The notes: generated from the sequence alone by a model not told the origin. Numbered from the stretch's first letter, positions 1,013 to 45,524 are shown. The stretch is DNA of 45,524 nucleotides from Candidatus Micrarchaeia archaeon (GCA_038874185.1 JAVZCX010000002.1:1-45524); one strand, 5' to 3'. Numbers and translations are program-made.

Positions 1013-2158
1013 ATGCCAATAACTATTTTCCTTGAGGATGGAAAGCTTAAAGTAAAAAATCCTGAAGACTATGAAGCACTAAGAAGATCTTATTACGGAG
1101 AAAAAGGTAAAGGAGAGATAGTTATAACTCCAGAAGAGGCGATGTATCTAATAGAGGTTAGAAACGCTGTTTGCATAGAAAATGGGAAGGAGATCAGCTT
1201 CTCGCAGATAGCAGATAGATTCAATAAGGAAAAGATGTTTGCAGAATACATGACATTTCGCGATTGGAGAGAAAGAGGATTGATAATTAAAAAATACAGG
1301 AAAGAAGGCAAATATGAAAAAAATCCAACTGTAAAATACCCGAGCAAGGAAACGAAATTCCCAAAAATCCAGGCTGAGGCGATTTTCTTCAAAGACGATA
1401 AAATGGCAATATTGGAAAATGAAGAGATTGGAAAGGAGCTTTATAATAATTATTGGATCGGACAATACGGTTCATACAAGGCAGAAGGAAGAGGAAAGTT
1501 CCTAAAGTTAGATAAGTTTGAGACATATTTTCTTGTTAAGAATTGTGGGCTGAAACTGATTAATTTAACTGAAAAGGAATTGGAAAAAATATTGAAAGAA
1601 GAAAACGATTTTGAATCAATGTATAACGTGTATGAAGACTGGAGAATGAATGGATTTGTAGTGAAGACTGGCTTCAAGTTCGGAACCCATTTCAGGATAT
1701 ATTTCCCTGGTGCATTGCCAGGAAAAGGAAAGGATTGGACCCATTCAAAGCATGTTCTCCATGTATTTCCAAGAGAAAAAAGAATGATAATTGCTGAATG
1801 GGCAAGGGCAATAAGGGTTGCGCATGGAGTAAGAAAGACCTTCATACTTGCGATACCTGGAAAGAAAACAAAATCAGAAAAAGGAATGATAAGCTTCTTA
1901 TTATATCATAGAAAAAACAACAATATTGAAACACCTGAAAAGGACAGCCCCTCCTTTGCACTTGTACCTCTTAGTGAAGATGAGATGATCGGAGGGAATG
2001 AACTCGCATCTGCAATAGAAGAAGCAAAGGAGATTGGATTGGATGTCATGCTTGGAATAGTGGATAGGGAGACCTCTGTCACATATTACAGAGTTAAAAG
2101 AATAAACTTGCCTAAAAGCAAGTATGAATACTATGAAATAGAATGGGCACAGCCGTAA
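1013..2158 (+). CDS. endA: tRNA-splicing endonuclease, fused multi-unit form
   Basis: 381-aa ORF. The C-terminal half has the EndA catalytic-unit signature (VYEDWRMNGFVVKTGFKFGTHFRIY, HSKHVLHV, VRKTFILAI, VTYYRVKRI). The N-terminal half has a second, degenerate EndA-like unit (YMTFRDWRERGLIIKK). The length is more than twice the roughly 180-aa single-unit enzyme. Confidence 0.85.
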   Translation: MPITIFLEDGKLKVKNPEDYEALRRSYYGEKGKGEIVITPEEAMYLIEVRNAVCIENGKEISFSQIADRFNKEKMFAEYMTFRDWRERGLIIKKYRKEGKYEKNPTVKYPSKETKFPKIQAEAIFFKDDKMAILENEEIGKELYNNYWIGQYGSYKAEGRGKFLKLDKFETYFLVKNCGLKLINLTEKELEKILKEENDFESMYNVYEDWRMNGFVVKTGFKFGTHFRIYFPGALPGKGKDWTHSKHVLHVFPREKRMIIAEWARAIRVAHGVRKTFILAIPGKKTKSEKGMISFLLYHRKNNNIETPEKDSPSFALVPLSEDEMIGGNELASAIEEAKEIGLDVMLGIVDRETSVTYYRVKRINLPKSKYEYYEIEWAQP

Positions 2159-2195: not shown

Positions 2196-5100
2196 ATGAA
2201 CATTGGAGAAGGAATAAGAAAAGCGCTTGCAAAGATAACTGGAAAAGCGATAATAGATGAAAGTGCTGTTAAATCAATGATAAAAGAGATACAAAGAGCG
2301 CTTATACTTTCAGATGTGAATATAGAGCTAGTGTACAAGCTTTCAAAGCAGATAGAAAATCGTTCTCTTAATGAAAAACCTCCCGCTGGAAGAAGTATGA
2401 GCGAACACATCCATGCAATTGTGTATGAAGAACTCACTAAGATCATGGGGGAGGGAAGAAAGCTCGAGCTAAAACCTCAAAAGATAATGATGTGTGGATT
2501 GTTTGGAAGTGGGAAATGCATACATGGAGATTCGCTAATTCCTCTCTGTGAAGGAAATGTAATGCCAATCAAACAAGTCTATAAACAAATAGAAAAGAAT
2601 GGAAATAAAGAGGTATTAATAGATGGATATATGATACGACCAAATAAGGAATTTGAAGTTTATTCTTTTGATCCAAATACAATGAAAATTAAGAAAACAC
2701 GTATAGAAGCTGCTTGGAAACTTTATAAAGATGAATTAATCGAAGTGAGTTTAGATAATGGGAACGATCATAAGATATTGGTGACGCCAGAACATCCATT
2801 CTATACTTTAGAAGATGGAATGATAAAAGAGGTACGTGCAGAAGATCTGCAGATTGGCCAGTTTGTCGCAGTTCCAAGAAACCTTCCCTTTGATGATAAA
2901 AGATATGTTGACATGTGGGATGAAATAATTACAAATACAAACAAAGACATTGCGATCGTAGATAAAGGGATTGCATTGCAAATTAGAGAACAACTTTTGC
3001 GAAAATATGGAACTCTTATGATTGCATATCAGAAATTGAAAATAAGGGGAGCATATTGCACATTTACTGCCAACCTTAAATGGGGAATAGTCCCTATCGA
3101 ACTATTAAGAAAATGCATCAAATATGGGGTTAAAATAAGTAAGCCGACGACATTGACTGTTGCAAGAATTGGAAGAGCAGGTCCATCTAAAAAAATAAAG
3201 TTTCCATTGATTTTTTCTGAAGAATTCTCTGAATTCTTAGGCTACTTATATGCCGAAGGATACATTAGAAAAGAATATCTAGAAATGACAAATGTGGAGC
3301 CAGAGCTAATCGAAAGATTTAGTTACTTAGTAAAGAAATTATTTGATATCAAACCGCGAATTAAAAGGGACATAAGGCGATCACGACTCAAAAGAGTCAT
3401 AGTAAGTTCTAAACTATTGGTTTATCTACTTAAAATAATATTTAAAATGCCTTTGAAAAATAAAAGCAGAAAAATATCAAGTCCAATACAATTATTGAAA
3501 TCGCCTAATAATATCTTAATTTCATTTATTAAAGCATATTTCGATTCTGACGGCTGGGTTGGCGATAACACAAGAAGTATAGAGATCTCTACAGCGAGCA
3601 AAAGAATGGCGGAAGAACTTCGCTACATGTTGTTAAGATTAAATATATTTAGTGGTGTCTCTAGAAAAACAATAAATAATACAAGCTATTACCGAGTTTA
3701 TATAAGAGGATGGAGCGCAGAAAGATTCTCTAAGATAATCCTTCCGACATCTAAGAAAAAAGAAGAACGACTTAGAAATATGATCGATATTGGGAAAGGT
3801 CAAACGCCTGGGAAATTTGAACTCATCCCAGTTGGCAGACTCTTAAAAGAAACAAGAGAAGGTTGGGGCGCAACGATCGGTGAAATTCAAGAACATGTAA
3901 ATTCGTATGGAAATTACGAAAGGAATGGTGTTATAACAAGAAAATCACTGAAAAAATTCTTGGAATGTCTACCGAAACTAAAAAGAAATTGGATGACATT
4001 GATGAATATTATTTCTAATCATGGAAATAACTATGAAGAAATTATAGAAAATGCAAGAATAAATAAAGCTGTAGCTAATGCGTTTCTCTTCAGACTGTCT
4101 CAACTGGGGTATGTAAAGCAGATTCCAACTGAAAATGGTTTATTATTCATGATAACAACTACTGGTAAAGAGAAAGTAAAGGCTGTTAAAACCTTTGATG
4201 AAAATTATAAGATATTAAGGTTATTATCTGAATCAAATGTTTGTTGGATAAGGGTTGCAGGAAAGAAACATGTCAAAAATAAAGAAAAGTTTGTTTATGA
4301 TTTGACTATCAAAGAATACCACAACTTCATTGCAAATAATATGATCGTTCATAATACTACACAGATAGGCAAAATTGCACATTATCTCAAGAAAAGAGGT
4401 ATGAGCGTTGGTGTTATTGCAGCTGACATGATGAGGCCTGCAGCATATGAACAGCTTGAACAGCTTTCAAAGCAGGTAGGCTGCAACTTTTATGGAAGAA
4501 AAGGGGAAGGCGTCAAAGCTAAGGATGTTGTCAAAGAAGGTATTGAAAAGCTAAAGAATGATGTTATAATAATAGACACCTCTGGAAGAGATGCGCTTGA
4601 TGATGAACTAATAGCTGAATTGAGAGAGATAAATGAAGTTGCAAAGCCTGATGAGAGAATACTTGTAATATCAGCTGACATAGGACAGGTTGCAAAGAAG
4701 CAGGCTGAAGAATTCAATAATGCAGTTGAACTAACTGGAGTTATAATAACAAAAATGGATGGGAGCGGTAAAGGTGGTGGGGCGCTTACAGCATGTGCAA
4801 CTGCAGGCGTGAAAGTTATATTCATAGGTGTAGGAGAAAAAATAGGAGACATAGAGGAATTCAACCCATCTAAATTTGTTGGAAGGCTTTTAGGAGTACC
4901 TGACTTTGAGGCTTTGATTGAAAAAGTAAAGGCTGCAGTACCTGAAGGAATGGAAGAGATGCCTGAAGAATTCACTATTGAAACTTTCTACAAACAATTA
5001 AAGGCTGCAAGAAATATGGGTCCCTTAAAAGGACTATTTGAGACAATGGGAATGGTTAATGTGCCTAAAGAAGTTCTTGACCAAGGAGAGCAAAAAATGG

Positions 5101-5342
5101 ACCAATATGAATCAATTATAGATTCGATGACCAAGGCTGAAAGAAAGAATCCAGATCTGGTTAGAAAAAGTCCTTCAAGAATAGAAAGGATTTCCAAAGG
5201 TTCGGGTGTACCTGCTTCTGTTGTAAAGGAATTTATAACTCAATTTGGCAAGATGAAAAAGATGTATGAACAGTTACAGAAGAATAAAGGTATGCAAAGA
5301 AATCTACAAAGACTATTCAAAGGAAAAGGATTCGGTTTCTAA
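2196..5342 (+). CDS. srp54: Signal recognition particle protein SRP54, interrupted by an intein
   Basis: The N domain is followed by a G-domain P-loop, GLFGSGK / TTQIGKIAHYL, that is split by an insert. Downstream motifs are DTSGR, ITKMDGSGKGG and a Met-rich M domain. The exteins sum to 435 aa, the normal archaeal SRP54 size. Confidence 0.93.
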   Translation: MNIGEGIRKALAKITGKAIIDESAVKSMIKEIQRALILSDVNIELVYKLSKQIENRSLNEKPPAGRSMSEHIHAIVYEELTKIMGEGRKLELKPQKIMMCGLFGSGKCIHGDSLIPLCEGNVMPIKQVYKQIEKNGNKEVLIDGYMIRPNKEFEVYSFDPNTMKIKKTRIEAAWKLYKDELIEVSLDNGNDHKILVTPEHPFYTLEDGMIKEVRAEDLQIGQFVAVPRNLPFDDKRYVDMWDEIITNTNKDIAIVDKGIALQIREQLLRKYGTLMIAYQKLKIRGAYCTFTANLKWGIVPIELLRKCIKYGVKISKPTTLTVARIGRAGPSKKIKFPLIFSEEFSEFLGYLYAEGYIRKEYLEMTNVEPELIERFSYLVKKLFDIKPRIKRDIRRSRLKRVIVSSKLLVYLLKIIFKMPLKNKSRKISSPIQLLKSPNNILISFIKAYFDSDGWVGDNTRSIEISTASKRMAEELRYMLLRLNIFSGVSRKTINNTSYYRVYIRGWSAERFSKIILPTSKKKEERLRNMIDIGKGQTPGKFELIPVGRLLKETREGWGATIGEIQEHVNSYGNYERNGVITRKSLKKFLECLPKLKRNWMTLMNIISNHGNNYEEIIENARINKAVANAFLFRLSQLGYVKQIPTENGLLFMITTTGKEKVKAVKTFDENYKILRLLSESNVCWIRVAGKKHVKNKEKFVYDLTIKEYHNFIANNMIVHNTTQIGKIAHYLKKRGMSVGVIAADMMRPAAYEQLEQLSKQVGCNFYGRKGEGVKAKDVVKEGIEKLKNDVIIIDTSGRDALDDELIAELREINEVAKPDERILVISADIGQVAKKQAEEFNNAVELTGVIITKMDGSGKGGGALTACATAGVKVIFIGVGEKIGDIEEFNPSKFVGRLLGVPDFEALIEKVKAAVPEGMEEMPEEFTIETFYKQLKAARNMGPLKGLFETMGMVNVPKEVLDQGEQKMDQYESIIDSMTKAERKNPDLVRKSPSRIERISKGSGVPASVVKEFITQFGKMKKMYEQLQKNKGMQRNLQRLFKGKGFGF
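2517..4355 (+). mobile_element. Large intein (613 aa) with a LAGLIDADG homing-endonuclease domain, inserted in the SRP54 P-loop
   Basis: Starts with Cys (CIHGDSLIPL, block A) and has TPEHPF (block B TxxH). LAGLIDADG-like motifs are FLGYLYAEGYI and FIKAYFDSDGWV. Ends FVYDLTIKEYHNFIANNMIVHN, followed by a +1 Thr. Removal restores GSGKTT. Confidence 0.9.
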
Positions 5343-21075: not shown

Positions 21076-22092
21076 TTATTTGCTTTTGCCGATGCCTTCT
21101 ATTGAAATGATTTTGCCTTCTATGTTAAACTGTTTTCCAGTAAACAAAGGTATTATCTCCATGCACGATCGCATGTGGCCAGTTATTTTGTTAACTTTTA
21201 TCTTTGATTCTCCACAAGCCAAAGCCATGTATATTAGAATTTGATCTCCCATCCATTGGTCTACCGCCCCTTTGGATTTCACAAGCTTGTTTAATTCTTC
21301 TGCACACGTCTTTGCTATTTTTTCAGCCTTTATTCCTTTCTCACCCAATATGCCAGAACCGATAATTGTGTTTTCATATTCCGCCCACGTGGTTATTGCA
21401 TTACCTGCTGAAGCCGAATTCCTGTTCCTCTTAGTTAGTATTATACCTGGAAATATGCTCCTTATGCTTTGTTCTTCTCTTTCCATAATCTCGTCTGGAA
21501 GATTTGACTGAGAAATTACTCCGTTTATGGATTTTAGATTTAATTTTTCAGTTATAGAGATTGGAGAAATAATGGAAGGCTTGACAAACAGGGTTACTTT
21601 CCCCTGGCCTTTTGGATACCAGCCGAATTCTTCTACCAATATTTCTGCATTTACACCCATCTTTCGAATCATAGGTAAGAATATATTTTCGAAATAATCA
21701 GTCGATGGCGAATGAGATACATGAGTTCCTCCTGTCATATTTATCTTGGAAGGTCTGTCTGCATAAAGCATCACTGGAAGAACAGATTGCATTAACAAAG
21801 GAATCGATCCTGCAGTTCCTATGTCAAATTCATAGTATCCTCCAATTATTCTATTTGGCTTGAAAAAAAGATCTGTAGATCCTACTTTGTTTCCATCTAC
21901 TTCTGCTTTTGTAATCAATGAAAGTGAATTTGTGGATGTTAGGTGCTGAGGTTGTAGTCCTGGCTTTGGCCGCTTCGCTCTTATGTTTTTAATATTGAAC
22001 GGAATCCCTGTAATACAAGAAAGTGCTAATGCAGTTCTTAAAATCTGCCCACCGCCTTCTCCTTTAGAGCCGTCTATTACAATTGGATCCAT
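21076..22092 (-). CDS. rtcA: RNA 3'-terminal phosphate cyclase
   Basis: MDPIVIDGSKGEGGGQILRTALALSCITG is the canonical RtcA N-terminus. I therefore place the start at the ATG at 22092, giving 339 aa. The ORF-track extension to 22308 is hydrophobic and non-homologous. Confidence 0.85.
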   Translation of the reverse strand: MDPIVIDGSKGEGGGQILRTALALSCITGIPFNIKNIRAKRPKPGLQPQHLTSTNSLSLITKAEVDGNKVGSTDLFFKPNRIIGGYYEFDIGTAGSIPLLMQSVLPVMLYADRPSKINMTGGTHVSHSPSTDYFENIFLPMIRKMGVNAEILVEEFGWYPKGQGKVTLFVKPSIISPISITEKLNLKSINGVISQSNLPDEIMEREEQSIRSIFPGIILTKRNRNSASAGNAITTWAEYENTIIGSGILGEKGIKAEKIAKTCAEELNKLVKSKGAVDQWMGDQILIYMALACGESKIKVNKITGHMRSCMEIIPLFTGKQFNIEGKIISIEGIGKSK

Positions 22093-22389
22093 ATAATCCA
22101 CCTTTAGTGAAAAGAAAGAGGCCAGTGCATTCGCACTGGCGAGGCGACCAATTTGAGGCAGATGTACAAAATTCGATGTACCCTCTATTAGTATAATATC
22201 TAAAAGATTTATAAATCTTACTAAAATCATTATTTTTATATAAAAAGTTTTCCTTTTAACTAGGCTTCCTATACTTCCACTAAAAATTAAAAATAAGAAT
22301 AAATTCATTTAACCCTTTCTTCAAGTATTTATGCTCTTTACGTTTGAAATGTTTTAATAGCTTTATACAATAATCTATCTGGGGATTAT

Positions 22390-23559
22390 GTGAACATGAA
22401 TAGTTTATCACATCTTTCCAAAAAGAAAGGGTCTGGTGGAAAAAGAATAAACGAACCTGAAGGTTTTATAGTAGAAGAAATTTTTAATGGAGAGAACGTA
22501 ACGGAGTTAAATCTAGAAAACGTTGACAATTCAGAATACATCACATTTGTACTTGAAAAGAAGAACCTCACAACTTACGATGCGATTCGTTTTTTATCTG
22601 ACTCTCTCAAAGTGGATGTTAAAAGGTTCAGCATTGCAGGACAGAAAGACAAGAATGCGATTACATATCAATTGGTTTCTTGCTGGAAAGGTAGAGAGAT
22701 AAGCTCTGAAAAGCTAATGGAAATAAGCAAAAAGAACCATAATATAAAGATAGCGAGGATTTGGAATACGAACTTTAAAGTAAGAATAGGCACGTTGACT
22801 GGGAATAGCTTTACAATTAGATTAACTGAAGTAGAGGACATTGGCGCTGTTGAGAGAATAATGCAAGAGAATGGAGATATCATACCGAATTATTTCGGAC
22901 CTCAGAGGTTTGGGACCAGATCTACTAATGTTGATGTAGCCAGATGCATACTGTTGAAAGATTATGAAAGCGCAATCAAGTACTTACTTAAGATTCCGGA
23001 AAATGAAAGCATCAGCGAATGCCAAGAAGCTAATGAACTTGGATTGTACGAAAAAAGAATTTCTAATTTCTTGAAGGAAAGAGGTTACGATTCTGATTCA
23101 TTCAGAAATGCAATTAAGATGATACCTGCTTCGATCCTTAAATTAATACTAGACTCTTATCAATCTTATCTTTTTAATGTTGAATTAAGTTTTAGAATTA
23201 AAAATAAACTGATGGAACCTCTTGAAAATGATAAAACATGTGGTTTTAACAGATATGGTTTTGTTGATTTAGATTCTTCTGGAAATCAGATCGTCTGCAG
23301 CCAGTTAATCGGGTATGATAGCAGACCTAATGATGTAATAAAAGACATTTTATGGGAAGAGGGAATTGAAATTGGTGATTTCAAACTGCGCGAATTCCCT
23401 GGTTTGAATCTAAATGGGTCGTGGCGTCCATTATTTGTAAATGTAAAGGATTTAAATATTAAGAAAGATAATGATGAATACGAATTAAAATTCAAACTGA
23501 CTAAAGGTGCATATGCAACTAGCTTCTTAAGAGAAATCACAGACATAAAAAGGATATAA
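22390..23559 (+). CDS. truD: tRNA pseudouridine synthase D (TruD/Pus7)
   Basis: 389 aa with AGQKDKNAIT and NYFGPQRFG motifs and the insertion-domain layout typical of TruD. Confidence 0.85.
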   Translation: MNMNSLSHLSKKKGSGGKRINEPEGFIVEEIFNGENVTELNLENVDNSEYITFVLEKKNLTTYDAIRFLSDSLKVDVKRFSIAGQKDKNAITYQLVSCWKGREISSEKLMEISKKNHNIKIARIWNTNFKVRIGTLTGNSFTIRLTEVEDIGAVERIMQENGDIIPNYFGPQRFGTRSTNVDVARCILLKDYESAIKYLLKIPENESISECQEANELGLYEKRISNFLKERGYDSDSFRNAIKMIPASILKLILDSYQSYLFNVELSFRIKNKLMEPLENDKTCGFNRYGFVDLDSSGNQIVCSQLIGYDSRPNDVIKDILWEEGIEIGDFKLREFPGLNLNGSWRPLFVNVKDLNIKKDNDEYELKFKLTKGAYATSFLREITDIKRI

Positions 23560-40208: not shown

Positions 40209-40283
40209 GCTCCGATCGTCTAGCCCGGTCAAGGACGCAGCCCTTTCAAGGCTGAAACTCGGGTTCAAATCCCGATCGGAGCA
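40209..40283 (+). tRNA. tRNA-Glu(UUC), no intron
   Basis: GCTCCGA-TC-GTCT-AGCCCGGTCAA-GGAC-G-CAGCC-CTTTCAA-GGCTG-AAAC-TCGGG-TTCAAAT-CCCGA-TCGGAGC-A. Confidence 0.92.
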
Positions 40284-40434
40284 CTAATTATTTAATTACT
40301 ATAAATAAAAATCACTATTTTCAACTATTTATTAAGGAATTTGATAGAAACAATATGAGAAAAAGTTCACTAAATCAAAATAAAAACACAAAAAATCAAA
40401 AACAAAGGAAAGATAAAAGAAGAAAACAAAAAAA

Positions 40435-41649
40435 TCAGCTGAATAACAGTTTAAGATAGAATAGAGGAGAAGAGAAGTTCTTCTTTGATTCCTCGCTTAC
40501 TATCATAGATGTAATTTCCTTCTTTATTTCTGGATTCCTTGCCGCTTTATCTATCACTAAGTTGAGAAGGAATTCAATCTTTCCTAATCTCTGTAGTAAG
40601 TAGCTCATCTCAAGCTCGCTCTTTAGCTCTCTTTTTATTTCTTCTTCATATTCGCTTAATATTTTCTTGCTATAAACGCCCATTCTGAGTGCTTTGCTTA
40701 TAGTTCTGAAAGCCAGCTTTCCGCTAAGCATTGCATTACCCATTCCCTCTCCAGAGAAAGGATCTATTAAAGAGGCTGCATCTCCAATTAAAATCCATCC
40801 ATCTCCAGCTATATGTTTTCTTATCTTTGAACCCAATGGAAGGTTCCATCCTTTGATCTCGCTTATTAGTCTTGCGTTTTTGAATCTTTCCTTAAACATT
40901 GGGTTTTCTTTAATCTCCTTTTCCATCAGTTCTTTGAGATTGATGTTCTTAGCCTTTACATCTTTTGTAAGCATCCCTAATCCTACATTTGCAGTTCCGT
41001 CTTCGTATGGGAATATCCAGAAGTAGCCAGGTATTGCTGTTTTTGTAAAGTGAAGCTCTATAACATCCTTCATTCCAGTTACTCCATCATAATATCCTCT
41101 TACTGCGACACAATGGTGGGCTGGATCAACTTCAAACAAACCCAATTTCTGTGCGACAACCGACATTGCTCCGTCTGCACCAACTACAATGCTTGAGTAG
41201 TATCTTTGCTCTTTTCCGTTCTTGTCTTTTCCTACAATTCCTATTACCTGTTCTCCATCTTTGATTAAATCAGTGACAGTGAATTCTTCTAGTGTGTCAA
41301 CATATTTCTTTGCTGCCTTGAATATAAGATTGTCAAGTATCTCTCTTCTGCATACAAACCCGTCTTGGCCTTCAGTCCTGATCTCAAGGATTGTTCCTTT
41401 CGGCGATGAGAATATTACTCCATTGTTGACTCCATGCGCAACTTTCTTGATTTCAGGAAGAATTCCTAATTCCCTGAGAACAGAGATAGATTTTCCACTG
41501 CAAGCATCTCCACAAGTCTTGTCTCTTGGAAATTTTGCCTTGTCAACCAAAAGCACCTTTCTTCCTTCTCTTCCCAGGAAGTTTGCACATACAGAGCCAG
41601 CAGGCCCTGCGCCTACGATAATTACATCATATTTGTTAGTAATTGCCAT
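40435..41649 (-). CDS. Geranylgeranyl reductase family flavoprotein (archaeal lipid saturase-like)
   Basis: YDVIIVGAGPAGSVCA FAD fold, DKTCGDACSG, LIGDAASLIDPFSGEG. Confidence 0.88.
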   Translation of the reverse strand: MAITNKYDVIIVGAGPAGSVCANFLGREGRKVLLVDKAKFPRDKTCGDACSGKSISVLRELGILPEIKKVAHGVNNGVIFSSPKGTILEIRTEGQDGFVCRREILDNLIFKAAKKYVDTLEEFTVTDLIKDGEQVIGIVGKDKNGKEQRYYSSIVVGADGAMSVVAQKLGLFEVDPAHHCVAVRGYYDGVTGMKDVIELHFTKTAIPGYFWIFPYEDGTANVGLGMLTKDVKAKNINLKELMEKEIKENPMFKERFKNARLISEIKGWNLPLGSKIRKHIAGDGWILIGDAASLIDPFSGEGMGNAMLSGKLAFRTISKALRMGVYSKKILSEYEEEIKRELKSELEMSYLLQRLGKIEFLLNLVIDKAARNPEIKKEITSMIVSEESKKNFSSPLFYLKLLFS

Positions 41650-41811
41650 TTTTTCACCTACAAATAGATAACATTATATGTAATTCAAAACAGATCACAG
41701 AACATATTCTGTGAATAATATAATATGCAAATAAAGGAATATAAATATATCATATTGTCCAAAATAGCTTACGCTAGGGAAATATAATTTAAAAGAAAAA
41801 TAAGAAGATAG

Positions 41812-41832
41812 GTTTGAACGAAAGACACGAAG
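41812..41832 (-). repeat. 3' strand of the 23S rRNA processing stem
   Basis: gtttgaacgaaagacacgaag is the perfect reverse complement of 45081..45101. The two arms bracket the 23S gene. Confidence 0.8.
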
Positions 41833-42238
41833 AAATTTGTGAGTAAGGAGATTTAGTATCAGCTGGCTCGCAGCTCGCGTAAGCTCGCTGCTTACACCAC
41901 TGACCTATCAAACGGGTCTGCTACCCGCTCTCACGTCTGCCTAGTTTTGGGCAATCCTTCGACCTTAGATGCTTTCAGGTCTTATGATTTGGCGCGTGGC
42001 TGCCCGGCAATGCTTTTTACAACCGGTATACTAGAGGCGCCCGTCCCATGTTCCTCTCGTACTAGTGGGGCGCTCCCCTCAGGCAGATGCAATCCTAGTA
42101 GATACTACCGTACTGTCTCGCGACGTACTGAACCCAACTCGTGTATCTCTTTAATGGATGAACAAACCAACCCTTGGGCGCTCCTGCACGCCCAGGATGA
42201 GATAGGTCGACAGCGATGTACCAAGCCGCGGGGTCGAT

Positions 42239-42283
42239 ATGTACGCGACAGACTAGCGTTCTAACGAAGACTAAGCTGTCGCA
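42239..42283 (-). other. 45-nt insertion at the tip of 23S helix 89 with BHB geometry (putative mini-intron)
   Basis: RNA sense: CGA-GA-GTAC-[CCT]-GCGACAG...CTGTCGC-GTAC-[ATA]-TCG. A 4-bp central helix is flanked by two 3-nt bulges on opposite strands. Removal gives a loop of the same length as the E. coli GAGUUCAUAUCGAC segment. Confidence 0.6.
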
Positions 42284-42309
42284 GGGTACTCTCGCCCGCG
42301 ACGAGCCTG

Positions 42310-42406
42310 TTTTGGGTCTTCACAGCTACAGAAAAGGACAACAAAAATACGATATGAAATATCGGAGAGGAGTGTATGTCCAGGTGATGTGGTGCAACTG
42401 AGAAGA
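42310..42406 (-). other. About 95-97-nt insertion inside the peptidyl-transferase ring sequence GGGAUAAC of 23S (putative intron; boundaries within about 3 nt)
   Basis: RNA sense: ACCTCGGGGGTAA|TCTTCTCAG...CTGTGAAGACCCAAAA|CAGGCTCG, against E. coli CUCCGGGGAUAACAGGCUG. The flanks pair as GGGT-[AAT]-CTTCTCAG / CTGTGAAG-ACCC. Confidence 0.6.
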
Positions 42407-42533
42407 TTACCCCCGAGGTAACTTGTCTGACAGACTGAGCCCTTAACAAAAGGATTTCAGTGTTCGTTAAGCCCGGCTTTCGCCTCTGCGTCCCACGCTT
42501 TTAAGAACACAGTCAGCCCTGCATTTCTCTTTA

Positions 42534-42694
42534 ACCGTCTTCACCCGACGTTCAGTGGCCGCACGATGATATGCGTCATTCGCTGTTCAACCTCATCACT
42601 AAATCGCACTAGGATTGTGCAATGCGTTTACAACGCATGCACATTCGTCCGCAAGACGAATTGTGCGTCAGAGGTTGTTCATTATATCATCCGC
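42534..42694 (-). other. About 161-nt structured insertion in 23S domain V (intron or expansion segment)
   Basis: Lies between CATGGTG and TAAAGAGAAATGCAGGGCTGACTG, which are contiguous in E. coli (UUAGUG|CAAUGGCAUAAGCCAGCUUGACUG). Its core is closed by the 8-bp stem GATGATAT/ATATCATC (42684..42691 / 42565..42572), with nested helices CAACCTC/GAGGTTG and CGCAC/GTGCG and two hairpins. Confidence 0.5.
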
Positions 42695-45080
42695 CACCAT
42701 GCGGTCATTTCTGACCGGGTTGAGCAGAGCTTTGGGCGCCCTTATTTCCTTATTGAGGGCGTACTGCCCCAGCCAAACTATCCACCTGCCGCTGTCCCCT
42801 TTCAGGTAAGAAACACAAGGATTGAAGAGTGGTGTTACACTTTTGCATCCACCTCAGCCGCAACCGAGGTTTCTACGCTCCCACTTACGCTCTGCAACAA
42901 TCCCTGAATTCCAACAACAGGCTATAGTAAAGTTCTACGGGGTCTTCGTTTCCCACTAGGATTCCTCCGCATATTCACGGAGCAGTGAGTTCACTAGGTC
43001 CCTCGTTGGGACAGTGGGAGAGTCGTTATGCCCTTCATGCAAGTCGCCAATTAAGCGACGAGGTATTACGCTACCTTAAGAGGATCAGAGTTATCCCCGC
43101 TCTTCGCCAGCCCTTAAATCCCTTGGACGAGATGTTCGGGTACTGGTAGTGAGCAGGCATCGGCAACCATACAAGACGTTTCCATTTTGCGGTTACCTGT
43201 GTTTTTGATAAACAGTCGCTCTCCCCTTGTTACTGAGACCTGCACATGCACCTTAAGATACAAGCGCAGGCAACCCTTATACCGAAGATACGGGTCTAAT
43301 TTGCCGAATTCCCTGACGAGAGTTCCCCTAACACGCCTAAGCTTTTTCAGCTAGCCACACTTGTACTAGTTCTAGGTACGGTCATAATGGATCGGATAGG
43401 ACCACTTTTCACGGATCCAAGGTCTCAACAGAACCCCCAAACGAGGGCTATTCGCGCCTTATACTGCTTCTCCTCATAACGAGACTCCACAGCACTATGT
43501 CGCTTGAACAAGGTCTCCCTTGCTCTGCCTAACCTCAGATGTCATGTTCCTACCTTGCGTTGCCGCGTCTACCACTATGGTACAGGAATATTAACCTGTT
43601 TCCCATTCGTCCCCTAGTAATTAGCTGGGGCCTTAGGACCGACTAACTCTTGGCTGACAAACGTTGCCAAGAAAACCGTGGGCTTTCGGCGTACTGGATT
43701 CTCACCAGTATTTGCTGCTACTAACTCCAGGATATTTATTGCAATACAGTCCATTGGAGCTCACGCCCCAACTTCTCTCTGTACCGCACACCTCCCTACC
43801 GGATCACACCTTTCGGGTGTGCCCTTGGGTCTCAGCATCCAGCTTTAGTCCCGTACATTTTCGGCCTGTATATTTCTCCCAACAAAGTTGGTGTCGAACG
43901 GTCCGCTATTACGCGTTGCTTAGACGATGGCTGCTTCTAAGCCTACGTCCCGTCTGTCTAGAAATACACATTCCTTGTGTCTTCACACTTAGCTGGAGTT
44001 TAGGGGCTTTAACCCAAGACTCGTTCGTTCACGTCACGGCTCGTCAGCTTACCCGACGAAACCCGACTCCCTGCTTCTACGATGATTGTAGATTCGGAGT
44101 TTGACAAGAAAGCAGGCTCTTTCGAACCTATTCTTTCTAATCAGTGCTCTACCCCACAATCCATCTCCACAAGGGTCATCCTGAGGGATGCTTCGGGAGG
44201 AACCCGCTATCGCAATGCTCGATTGGACTTTCACCCCTACACAGAAGTCACCTAAGCAGATATACTAGCACTAGTTGCGGCCCTCCACCAGTCGTTAGAC
44301 CGGCTTCAGCCTGCTTCAGTGTAGATCGCAACCGTTTCGGGTCAGATAATAGTGACTAAACGCACTTTCGTACGATGCGCCTCGTTCAGCACTGCGCGCA
44401 ATCGCTTTCGCTTCGCCTCTCGGCTCGCCACTAATATCTACTCCCTGGATCTTGATTCGAGAAGTACGATACGATACTGGTCCAGAACCATCGTACAACA
44501 GCATTGCTGCTGCTTCCTTTTGATTCCTTCGTCCCTTTCATACCGTATCAACCTGTGACCATTCAGTTTCAGGCACTTTTAACACCCATTTCTGGGTTCT
44601 TTTCAACGTTCGCTCACGCTACTAATCCGCTATCGGTCTTGGCTACCTGTTTAGAATTGGATGTTGCTCCACCCAAATTCATACTGGATTACCAACCAGT
44701 ATTACTCTTTTCGTCTCCCTCCTCCACCTTTTGCTTACGGGGCTGTCACCCTGTTTCGCACAGCATTCCAGCTGACTTCAGCTCCAGTAAAGGATGGTTG
44801 AGACGCCCACATCTCCTATACATTACTGCACAGGATTCAGTTTGTTCTCTCCGGCTTTCGCTCGCCGTTACTTACCGGATCCCAATTGGTTTCTCTTCCT
44901 GCGGCTACTAAGATGTTTCAATTCACCGCGTGTTTACCTGTCTCCAGGCACACAGAGATCGACGGATCAATGCTTGCTTGCAGCTACCCGTCGCTTATCG
45001 CAGCTTGCCACGTCTGCTTGAAAACCAAGCCTGGCCATCCCCTGAATGGCGTAGCACTCACAAATACAGTGTTATCACTG

Positions 45081-45101
45081 CTTCGTGTCTTTCGTTCAAA
45101 C
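45081..45101 (-). repeat. 5' strand of the 23S rRNA processing stem
   Basis: cttcgtgtctttcgttcaaac pairs perfectly (21 bp) with 41812..41832. The hairpin CAGTG-ATAA-CACTG (45066..45080) lies between this stem and 23S helix 1. Confidence 0.8.
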
Positions 45102-45160
45102 TTATATTCGCATGATGCACGCATCATCCATTCGGAAGACGCGCTATGGACTCGGCGTGA

Positions 45161-45192
45161 ATTACGCACAGCCTCCCTTTAGGAGACCACGT
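45161..45192 (-). other. tRNA-Ala intron 2, 32 nt, non-canonical position 59/60 in the T loop
   Basis: GCGTG-TTCG-[AAA]-CGTGGTCTCC-TAAAG-GGAGGCTGTG-CGTA-[ATT]-CACGC. Cutting after the second nucleotide of each bulge yields the T loop TTCGAAT. Confidence 0.75.
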
Positions 45193-45288: not shown

Positions 45289-45440
45289 TGCAAAGGAGGC
45301 GCTCTACCATTGAGCTACGAGCCCATGATCTATACTTCAGAATTCAATTACAACATTCCGTGCCTTGCTTGATGCGCTATGATTATAATTCATAACGAAA
45401 TGGAATTGTGCACACTTGAAACCAATTTAATTAATAAATT

Positions 45441-45524
45441 GGAGGTGATCTATCCGCAGGTTCCCCTACGGATACCTTGTTACGACTTAGCCCCCCTCAT
45501 AAAAACTTGGCTCGATACCATCAG
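45441..45524 (-). rRNA. rrs: 16S rRNA gene, 3' end only (continues beyond the window)
   Basis: The reverse complement reads ...AAGTCGTAACAAGGTATCCGTAGGGGAACCTGCGGATAGATCACCTCC, the universal SSU 3' terminus. Confidence 0.92.

Follow-up and report, generated by a model that had tools for sequence, protein, structure and literature searches.

Introduction

What becomes of extra sequence that splits the peptidyl-transferase (PTC) ring of a 23S rRNA gene? The question is raised by a 45,524-nt stretch of DNA from a Candidatus Micrarchaeia archaeon, referred to below as the window, in which an earlier sequence-only reading had noticed about 96 extra nucleotides within the ring and had argued that they almost certainly have to be excised. 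Archaeal rRNA BHB introns with or without LAGLIDADG homing endonucleases are already published, including introns of Micrarchaeota 16S and of DPANN LSU genes (PMC4496867, PMC5498576 and PMC6125680), as is the broad-specificity epsilon2 splicing endonuclease. Nawrocki, Jones and Eddy 2018 (PMC6125680) describe multi-intron LSU genes of DPANN archaea in which BHB introns occur beside group I introns. Here we consider whether the insert in the window is likely to be another such BHB intron, which enzyme might remove it, and how this reading compares with its rivals.

Results

The host gene

The Rfam model LSU_rRNA_archaea spans the gene end to end with a score of 2342.7 bits, 3233 nt standing against 2987 model positions:

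41834-45066, minus strand: host gene, archaeal 23S rRNA (Rfam LSU_rRNA_archaea match)

The 3' end of an SSU gene occupies 45440-45524, and GC content is ~34% in the flanking genes and ~50% in the rRNA. The geranylgeranyl reductase (GGR) gene at 40435-41649 neighbours the rRNA and has its best named homologues in Candidatus Micrarchaeota, and rRNAs ~99% identical to that of the window are found in JAOAKO010000002.1, CAZJHL010000018.1 and JAVZPM010000001.1, all assigned by GTDB to Candidatus Micrarchaeota / Micrarchaeia. As judged from these similarities, the host of the 23S gene is a Micrarchaeota-like DPANN archaeon.

Archaeal 23S processing stems usually carry a canonical 3-4-3 BHB. Here the sequences on either side of the 23S gene (45067-45176 plus 41724-41833, minus strand) form a helix of 21 bp, AAGUUUGAACGAAAGACACGAAG with CUUCGUGUCUUUCGUUCAAAC, in the manner of such a stem, and inspection of its fold showed no clear canonical 3-4-3 BHB. 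Action of a splicing endonuclease on the transcript therefore draws no independent support from this feature.

The gene also departs from the archaeal consensus near the PTC. At 42205-42225 (minus strand) the window reads ACAUCGCUGUCGAC against the consensus ACCUCGAUGUCGGC (C2499A, A2503C), and at 42410 (minus strand) it has G at 2448 (GGGGGUAA; A2448G). Unusual PTC-near substitutions are likewise seen in the homologous loci that we label L001-L005, L013 and L039, with A at 2505 additionally in L013, L039 and L077. Because these substitutions are shared by the intron-less relative introduced below, they have no tie to the intron.

A 97-nt insert in the PTC ring

In RNA sense the gene reads ...UACCUCGGGGGUAA, then the extra sequence, then (A)CAGGCUCGUCGCGGGCGAGAG; the E. 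coli counterpart is CUCCGGGGAUAACAGGCUGAU (G2447-C2452), in the numbering that we take to be standard, with GGGGAUAACAGG at 2444-2455. Alignment to an archaeal LSU covariance model, which the sequence-only reading had suggested as the way to fix the boundaries, located the gene and the insert, but the model alone left the extra sequence unplaced: 164 nt are set together against 23 of its positions at the PTC-ring region, because two separate inserts, introns B and C below, are present there.

Placement came instead from an uninterrupted allele. Syntenic rRNA operons of relatives were fetched via homologues of the window's reductase, and the closest relative found, L001 from a JGI metagenome (GGR 92% identical, LSU exons ~95%), has a contiguous ring, CCTCGGGGGTAACAGGCTCG (= CCUCGGGGGUAACAGGCUCG at the ring), and scores higher than the window against the LSU model (2427.5 vs 2342.7 bits). 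Comparison with this intron-less allele sets the length of the insert at exactly 97 nt and fixes its boundaries within the AA repeat. The flanking A's make three placements equivalent (42310-42406, 42311-42407 and 42312-42408), from which the BHB rule described in the following section selects one, with the cut between A2450 and A2451, sequence-equivalent to 2449/2450 or 2451/2452:

42311-42407, minus strand: intron B, putative ORF-less BHB intron of 97 nt in the PTC ring (covariance-model alignment, intron-less L001, homologues)

Removal of intron B restores the universal ring sequence. The predicted joined product, GGGGGUA-ACAGG, is the L001 allele, with the predicted junction CCUCGGGGGUA|ACAGGCUCG. 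On the RNA-sense strand the longest ORF of the insert has 23 codons and a TTG start, nothing meaningful. The sequence-only reading had therefore described a real insert: its span of 42310-42406, splitting G2447-C2452, is right within the 2-3 nt of ambiguity that it ascribed to the flanking A's, the PTC ring, as opposed to a variable helix, is indeed where the insert lies, and it contains no ORF. The search for the same insertion in related genomes that it had called for returned same-site inserts in at least 12 other distinct versions, which are considered below.

A tRNA gene of the same neighbourhood varies in a similar manner. The tRNA-Glu(UUC) gene beside the reductase gene is intron-less in the window (40209-40284, plus strand), and the orthologous genes in L002 (11247-11357) and L003 (8126-8236) have a ~36-nt intron at the canonical 37/38 position, so that a second site inside the window's clade differs in whether an intron is present.

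Predicted structure at the intron B junctions

The bulges of a BHB are cut after the second nucleotide, as in pre-tRNA 37/38 introns. We used the definition of a BHB as two 3-nt bulges on opposite strands, with a 4-bp helix between them and further helices flanking (PMC5829648). Along an archaeal pre-tRNA intron these parts succeed one another, 5' to 3', as outer helix, 4-bp helix, 3-nt bulge, inner helix and loop, then again inner helix, 4-bp helix, 3-nt bulge and outer helix. Divided accordingly, the sequence of the window is CUCG-GGGG-[U A|A]-UCUUCUCAGUUGC ... GUAGCUGUGAAGA-CCCA-[A A|A]-CAGG, with the following elements, all on the minus strand:

42408-42417, minus strand: BHB of intron B, 5' exon half (sequence, pair counts)
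42417-42414, minus strand: outer helix, strand CUCG (sequence, pair counts)
42413-42410, minus strand: central strand GGGG, 2445-2448 (sequence, pair counts)
U42409 and A42408, minus strand: bulge UA|A, whose third nucleotide, A42407, is the first intron base (sequence)
42394-42406, minus strand: inner helix h2, 5' strand UCUUCUCAGUUGC (MFE folds, compensatory changes)
42317-42329, minus strand: inner helix h2, 3' strand GUAGCUGUGAAGA (MFE folds, compensatory changes)
42306-42316, minus strand: BHB of intron B, 3' half (sequence, pair counts, L001-matching product)
42316-42313, minus strand: central strand CCCA, its A opposite G2445 as a mismatch
A42312, A42311, cut, A42310, minus strand: bulge B, with A42310 (A2451) as the first base of the 3' exon (sequence)
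42309-42306, minus strand: outer helix, strand CAGG (sequence, pair counts)

The central helix GGGG/CCCA consists of three G-C pairs and one G.A mismatch at the outermost pair, the outer helix CUCG/CAGG is weak, with 3/4 positions paired and one C.A, and the inner helix extends over 13 positions (UCUUC.../...GAAGA). The inner helix appears in the MFE fold together with the UAA bulge and the GGG/CCC pairs, and bulge B falls within an internal loop there; the insert with its flanks is no more stable than shuffled sequence (z = -1.36). Read from sequence and pairing, the motif of the window is a nearly canonical, slightly relaxed BHB.

The sequence-only reading had already seen in the flanks a relaxed helix-bulge-helix arrangement, which is of the archaeal-intron type, and in this it was right, while its register was one nucleotide off from the one supported comparatively, GGGG/CCCA with U-A|A. 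It had also found no convincing outer helix on the 3' side; the corrected register does give one, if short, following the bulge A-A|A. The earlier register itself (GGGU/ACCC, bulge AAU) was rejected, since symmetric cuts in it leave two extra A's relative to the intron-less allele.

The same site in other genomes

A collection with a single genome for each prokaryotic species was scanned for the 5' exon with a base other than C after GGGRUAA; the matches listed give no frequency estimate, and intron-bearing genomes have probably been missed. Because the pattern required a non-C, natural variation at 2452 flooded the scan, and most matches are archaea reading GGGAUAAU(U/G)GAG, that is, a natural C2452U substitution with no insertion. 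The variant GGGAUAAU(U/G)GAGUC (L008-L127), with U at 2452 and U/G at 2453 instead of the usual C-A, is read, among the matches listed, by Methanosarcinaceae/Methanosarcinales, Methanomassiliicoccales, Methanomethylophilaceae, Aenigmatarchaeota and some Micrarchaeota.

Insertions at the same point as intron B are found, among the matches listed, in the Micrarchaeota loci L013, L034, L039, L049, L052, L064, L072, L077 and L122, and beyond Micrarchaeota in Candidatus Borrarchaeum weybense (L045, Asgard) and in a Hadarchaeota MAG (L102). The insert is also kept at this site in L019, L085 and L100 (LSU ~99% identical), and in the more distant L002/L003 and L005, with a length of 97-141 nt, conserved ends and a divergent interior; in L002/L003 and L005 (114 and 141 nt) the ends AAUCUUYYCAGUU ... 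UAGCUGUKAAGACCCAAAA are conserved around a variable interior. In all, 12 other distinct versions were compared, of 44, 45, 57, 107, 114, 141, 167 and 669-680 nt. Distant Micrarchaeota share the 27-nt exon that separates introns B and C with 100% identity.

Through this range of lengths the BHB geometry is constant in all 13 versions, with UA|A as bulge A, A(A/U/G)|A as bulge B and an inner helix that follows directly. Positions 2445-2448 (GGGA where 2448 is A) pair in relatives with CUCC, CCUC, CCCU or UCCC, and all 4 central pairs are formed in L122, L049, L013, L039, L077, L064, L045 and L102; the G.A mismatch in the central helix is a feature of the window's clade, which has CCCA instead of CUCC, CCUC or CCCU. 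Symmetric cuts after the second bulge nucleotide yield the intron-less product in 13/13 versions.

Pairs were counted in a 38-column alignment of the junction segments of the 13 distinct versions. Standard pairs fill 86% of the cells, and double changes occur in 7/14 pairs, comprising 6/6 of the inner stem and one of the central helix, in segments that were picked with the BHB model in mind, which favours the model somewhat. The covariation score was reached by 0/500 shuffles, and sliding the partners by 1-3 columns reduces pairing to 20-53%. The exon change A2448G is matched by a U-to-C change in the intron strand. The inner helix takes the forms UCUUCU/UGAAGA, UCUCGU/ACGAGA, UUCGUC/GACGAA, UUCCAC/GUGGAA, AUGCGU/GCGCAU and GUACGC/GCGUAC, and these compensatory changes are independent of the choice of segments.

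Three loci, L051 (Freyarchaeota), L094 and L111, have ~750-nt insertions starting at the same GGGGAUAA| point. Their 5' ends differ from that of the intron B family and are mutually similar (UUAAUUAGAAAC..., UCAAUCAGAGAAAC...), and no Rfam group I match at gathering score was found in the L051 or L094 insertions.

Long members of the family

Four members of the family are 669-680 nt long, and each of the three that were translated (L034, L064 and L072) has a sense-strand LAGLIDADG ORF of ~188 aa, with the motifs LVGALGDA and GFFDAEGS and a match to Pfam LAGLIDADG_3 (E ~1e-10). The best solved relative of the L072 ORF is I-DmoI (E = 2.7e-8), which is encoded by the 23S intron of Desulfurococcus mobilis; the ORF has no significant similarity to I-SceI (E ~0.2). 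Neither of the long homologues that were scanned, L034 and L072, matches a group I model at gathering score.

Over its first 48 nt the window intron shares 50-57% identity with L072 and L034, which is suggestive, not strong, as a sign of common descent. By its site and sequence, we take the window intron to be an ORF-less member of a mobile family that has endonuclease-bearing full-length members at the same rDNA site, and we infer that the short form descended from the long form. The 16S introns of Thermoproteales fall into three size classes, namely endonuclease-encoding introns, ORF-less remnants and hairpins of less than ~50 nt (PMC4496867), and the family at 2450/2451 shows matching size classes.

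Two further predicted introns in the same gene

Two more predicted introns, which the sequence-only reading did not mention, lie ~140 nt (A) and ~30 nt (C) from intron B:

42550-42708, minus strand: intron A, putative intron of 159 nt with a canonical BHB, H84 loop (covariance model, intron-less Micrarchaeota loops)
42239-42283, minus strand: intron C, putative BHB hairpin of 45 nt, canonical, tip of the H89 loop (fold, loop-length consensus, L049)

For intron A the covariance model shows 160 nt against 1 model position, ~140 nt upstream of intron B. The sequence folds as ACCCGG-UCAG-[A A|A]-UGACCGCAUG ... CGUGCGGCCA-CUGA-[A C|G]-UCGGGU, with the outer helix ACCCGG/UCGGGU, the central helix UCAG/CUGA and the inner stem UGACCGCAUG/CGUGCGGCCA. 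Joining at the predicted junction GGUCAGAA|GUCGGGU would leave CGGUCAGAAGUCG, as long as the uninterrupted Micrarchaeota H84 loop GGGUCAGAAAUCC. The interior has large indels among near-identical genomes (159 nt here vs ~113 nt in L019, L085 and L100).

Inside intron A a conserved CCUCUGA ... (G/A)UGA(U/A)GAGG resembles a k-turn or C'/D'-like motif. A C/D-box sRNA (UGAUGA/CUGA-like) was considered for it and rejected, there being no Rfam family match and the 'guide' segments pairing with one another; a k-turn-like element in a rod-shaped intron is more likely.

Intron C folds as GA-GUAC-[C C|U]-GCGACAG ... CUGUCGC-GUAC-[A U|A]-UC, with GUAC/GUAC as the central helix. The product it would leave, GAGAGUACCC|AUCGAC, is of the consensus length for the H89 loop and agrees with L049, in which UACCCAUCGAC is contiguous and a separate H89 intron lies 5 nt upstream. 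Alternatively, a simple deletion with a GAGAG|UACAUAUCGAC junction may account for the difference in sequence. Without introns A, B and C, the 23S rRNA would be shortened from the 3233 nt in the genome to 2932 nt, a difference of 301 nt.

Among the matches listed, H89-loop insertions are also present in Aenigmatarchaeota, Nanoarchaeota and other Micrarchaeota (e.g. L030, L035, L048, L050, L053 and L061), L049 (MNVE01000016.1) has at least 5 insertions in the last 1 kb of LSU exon sequence, three of them ~730-770 nt, and the SSU gene of L034 spans 2087 nt vs a 1478-position model. The Micrarchaeota LSU genes of L049, L034, L072 and L064 are far more interrupted than that of the window.

A splicing endonuclease gene in the window

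The window also contains a gene for a candidate enzyme, again unmentioned in the sequence-only reading:

1013-2158, plus strand: epsilon2-type RNA-splicing endonuclease (EndA), 381 aa (Pfam, PDB alignment)

Its product matches Pfam tRNA_int_endo (E = 1.5e-27) and, over the full length, PDB 4FZ2/9W2K (E = 7.9e-123), the epsilon2 endonuclease of Candidatus Micrarchaeum acidiphilum ARMAN-2 (PMC3488258, PMC12397907). The residues aligned to Y236, H251, K282 and K161 are conserved; the former three form the catalytic triad, and K161 lies in an ARMAN-specific loop and is needed for cleaving strict and relaxed motifs (PMC3488258). EndA of the ARMAN-2 type cleaves both strict and relaxed BHB (PMC3488258, PMC5829648) and is one of two types known for relaxed BHB (PMC5829648), and this broad specificity fits the imperfect central helix of intron B. 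As for the ligase, RtcB was not found among the 30 window ORFs scanned.

Some features of these surroundings may be recorded. The EndA gene is of the three-unit, ARMAN-2-like form and adjoins the SRP54 gene (2196-5342, plus strand, 1048 aa), which is split by an intein with a LAGLIDADG endonuclease domain (Pfam Intein_splicing, LAGLIDADG_3) in or just before the GTPase domain; here too a core gene of this small genome hosts a selfish element. A gene for the RNA 3'-phosphate cyclase RtcA (21076-22308, minus strand) stands head to head with one for the tRNA pseudouridine synthase TruD (22390-23559, plus strand).

Discussion

We propose that the 97-nt insert is an archaeal BHB intron excised by EndA and an ORF-less member of a homing-endonuclease family, a reading to which, on sequence and comparative grounds, we would give a probability of roughly 0.88. 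Intron B interrupts a conserved gene and its removal restores that gene; it has the 3-4-3 geometry, slightly relaxed, with symmetric cuts; its helices show compensatory changes; and a splicing endonuclease gene is present. In the primary transcript, the exon GGGG (2445-2448) would pair with the CCCA that lies close to the 3' end of the intron, and the intron ends would pair with each other, UCUUCUCAGUUGC with GUAGCUGUGAAGA, presenting the bulges U-A|A and A-A|A on opposite strands, four bp apart. The EndA encoded at 1013-2158 would then cut each bulge after the second nucleotide, and an RtcB-type RNA ligase, its gene being outside the window, would join the exons into GGGGGUA-ACAGG. The intron would probably be circularised, with a circle junction running from ...GAAGACCCAAA to AUCUUCUCAG.... 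These steps of cleavage, ligation and circularisation of intron B we infer from its motif.

Let us consider what else the insert might be. If mature rRNA kept the 97 nt as an expansion segment of the PTC ring peculiar to this lineage, they would join other unusual insertions that occur in DPANN and Asgard rRNAs, in a lineage that also has unusual PTC-near substitutions (A2448G, C2499A, A2503C). However, L001, with exons ~95% identical, is without the insert, the lengths at this one point range over 44-680 nt with a homing endonuclease gene in some versions, and the sole conserved feature is a splicing motif linking exon and intron; moreover, the site, A2450/A2451 in the single-stranded catalytic core, is unlike that of an expansion segment. 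We consider retention very improbable. The same low expectation applies to a degenerate group I or other self-splicing intron. L2449 is a documented group I site (PMC3511172), which bears out the hot spot that the sequence-only reading named at this position, and group I introns are present in Micrarchaeota LSU genes according to PMC6125680, which catalogues LSU/1923, 1931, 2500 and 2593. Yet 97 nt, with relatives of 44-57 nt, is far under the size of a group I core, as that reading had also held, and there is no Rfam match other than LSU at E<=5 in 42230-42720, nor a group I match at gathering score in L034 and L072, the long homologues scanned; whichever of the equivalent placements is chosen, the last intron base is A and not the terminal G of group I introns, and the structure that is conserved is the BHB.

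Somewhat less improbable, if still a long way from likely, is that EndA or another RNase removes the insert and the exons are left unjoined, so that the 23S rRNA would exist in at least two pieces broken in the PTC ring. The window contains no ligase gene, and unconventional BHB-dependent 23S processing is known, for example the circular permutation reported in Pyrococcus (PMC7758197), but RtcB ligation follows cleavage in all characterised archaeal BHB introns (PMC4496867), a break at A2450/A2451 would be inside the catalytic centre, and the sequence offers nothing that sets the site apart from family members elsewhere. Finally, the data are of the metagenome type, in which rRNA operons are often misassembled; against a pseudogene or an assembly artefact stand the presence of the same insert in at least five other independent assemblies (L019, L085, L100, L002/L003 and L005), the high conservation of the exons, including the 27-nt B-C exon at 100%, and the covariance-model match from end to end, and we give this explanation hardly any weight.

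If intron B is, as we propose, a BHB intron excised by EndA, protein-dependent archaeal introns reach the catalytic ring of the ribosome in DPANN, where they co-occur with a broad-specificity epsilon2 endonuclease. Intron turnover at the site would be rapid, with the intron present or absent between genomes of ~95% identical rRNA. The 23S gene would be 301 nt longer than the mature RNA, and models, primers and phylogenies that ignore the introns would misalign the PTC region. Existing knowledge of how BHB introns work is unchanged by the finding.

A wider proposal is perhaps worth stating, which we regard as speculative and rather doubtful: LSU 2450/2451 might be an uncatalogued archaeal BHB homing site, occupied in Micrarchaeota, Borrarchaeum and Hadarchaeota, and the ORF-less copies of the window's lineage, three mini-introns grouped around the PTC, might persist through their dependence on the broad-specificity epsilon2 EndA, with splicing serving as an assembly checkpoint. 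If this were true, formation of the catalytic centre would be contingent on splicing by EndA, and the locus would offer a test of the proposed descent of BHB introns from group I introns at the same site. In a limited literature search we came across no BHB intron published for LSU 2450/2451.

How, then, does intron B compare with known systems? Like the introns of PMC6125680, it belongs to a multi-intron DPANN LSU gene, and one contig of that study, MNVE01000016.1 (L049), carries a 45-nt member of the intron B family; the study catalogues group I introns, and we found in it no list of BHB positions. Like crenarchaeal rRNA BHB introns, the family interrupts a highly conserved rRNA site, forms its BHB between exon and intron, and comes in three size classes. 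In contrast to the crenarchaeal introns of Desulfurococcus mobilis 23S and Thermoproteales 16S/23S, the host is a DPANN archaeon of ~34% GC and not a hyperthermophilic crenarchaeon, the site in the window is the PTC ring at 2450/2451, the window copy has a G.A in the central helix, and the predicted enzyme is epsilon2 and not (alpha-beta)2. The recognition motif and the predicted cut positions are like those of ARMAN-2 pre-tRNA introns, and the EndA of the window is a full-length homologue of the ARMAN-2 enzyme; unlike in those introns, the substrate here would be rRNA, and in the literature on the ARMAN-2 enzyme we found no report of epsilon2 endonuclease activity on rRNA introns. The group I introns at L2449 in myxomycete nuclear rDNA interrupt the same ring within 1-2 nt and are likewise mobile and LAGLIDADG-associated; the yeast mitochondrial omega intron, with I-SceI, is also at L2449. 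Unlike these group I introns, the intron B family has no ribozyme core, its splicing would rely on a protein endonuclease and a ligase instead of a ribozyme, and the homing endonuclease of its long members is I-DmoI-like.
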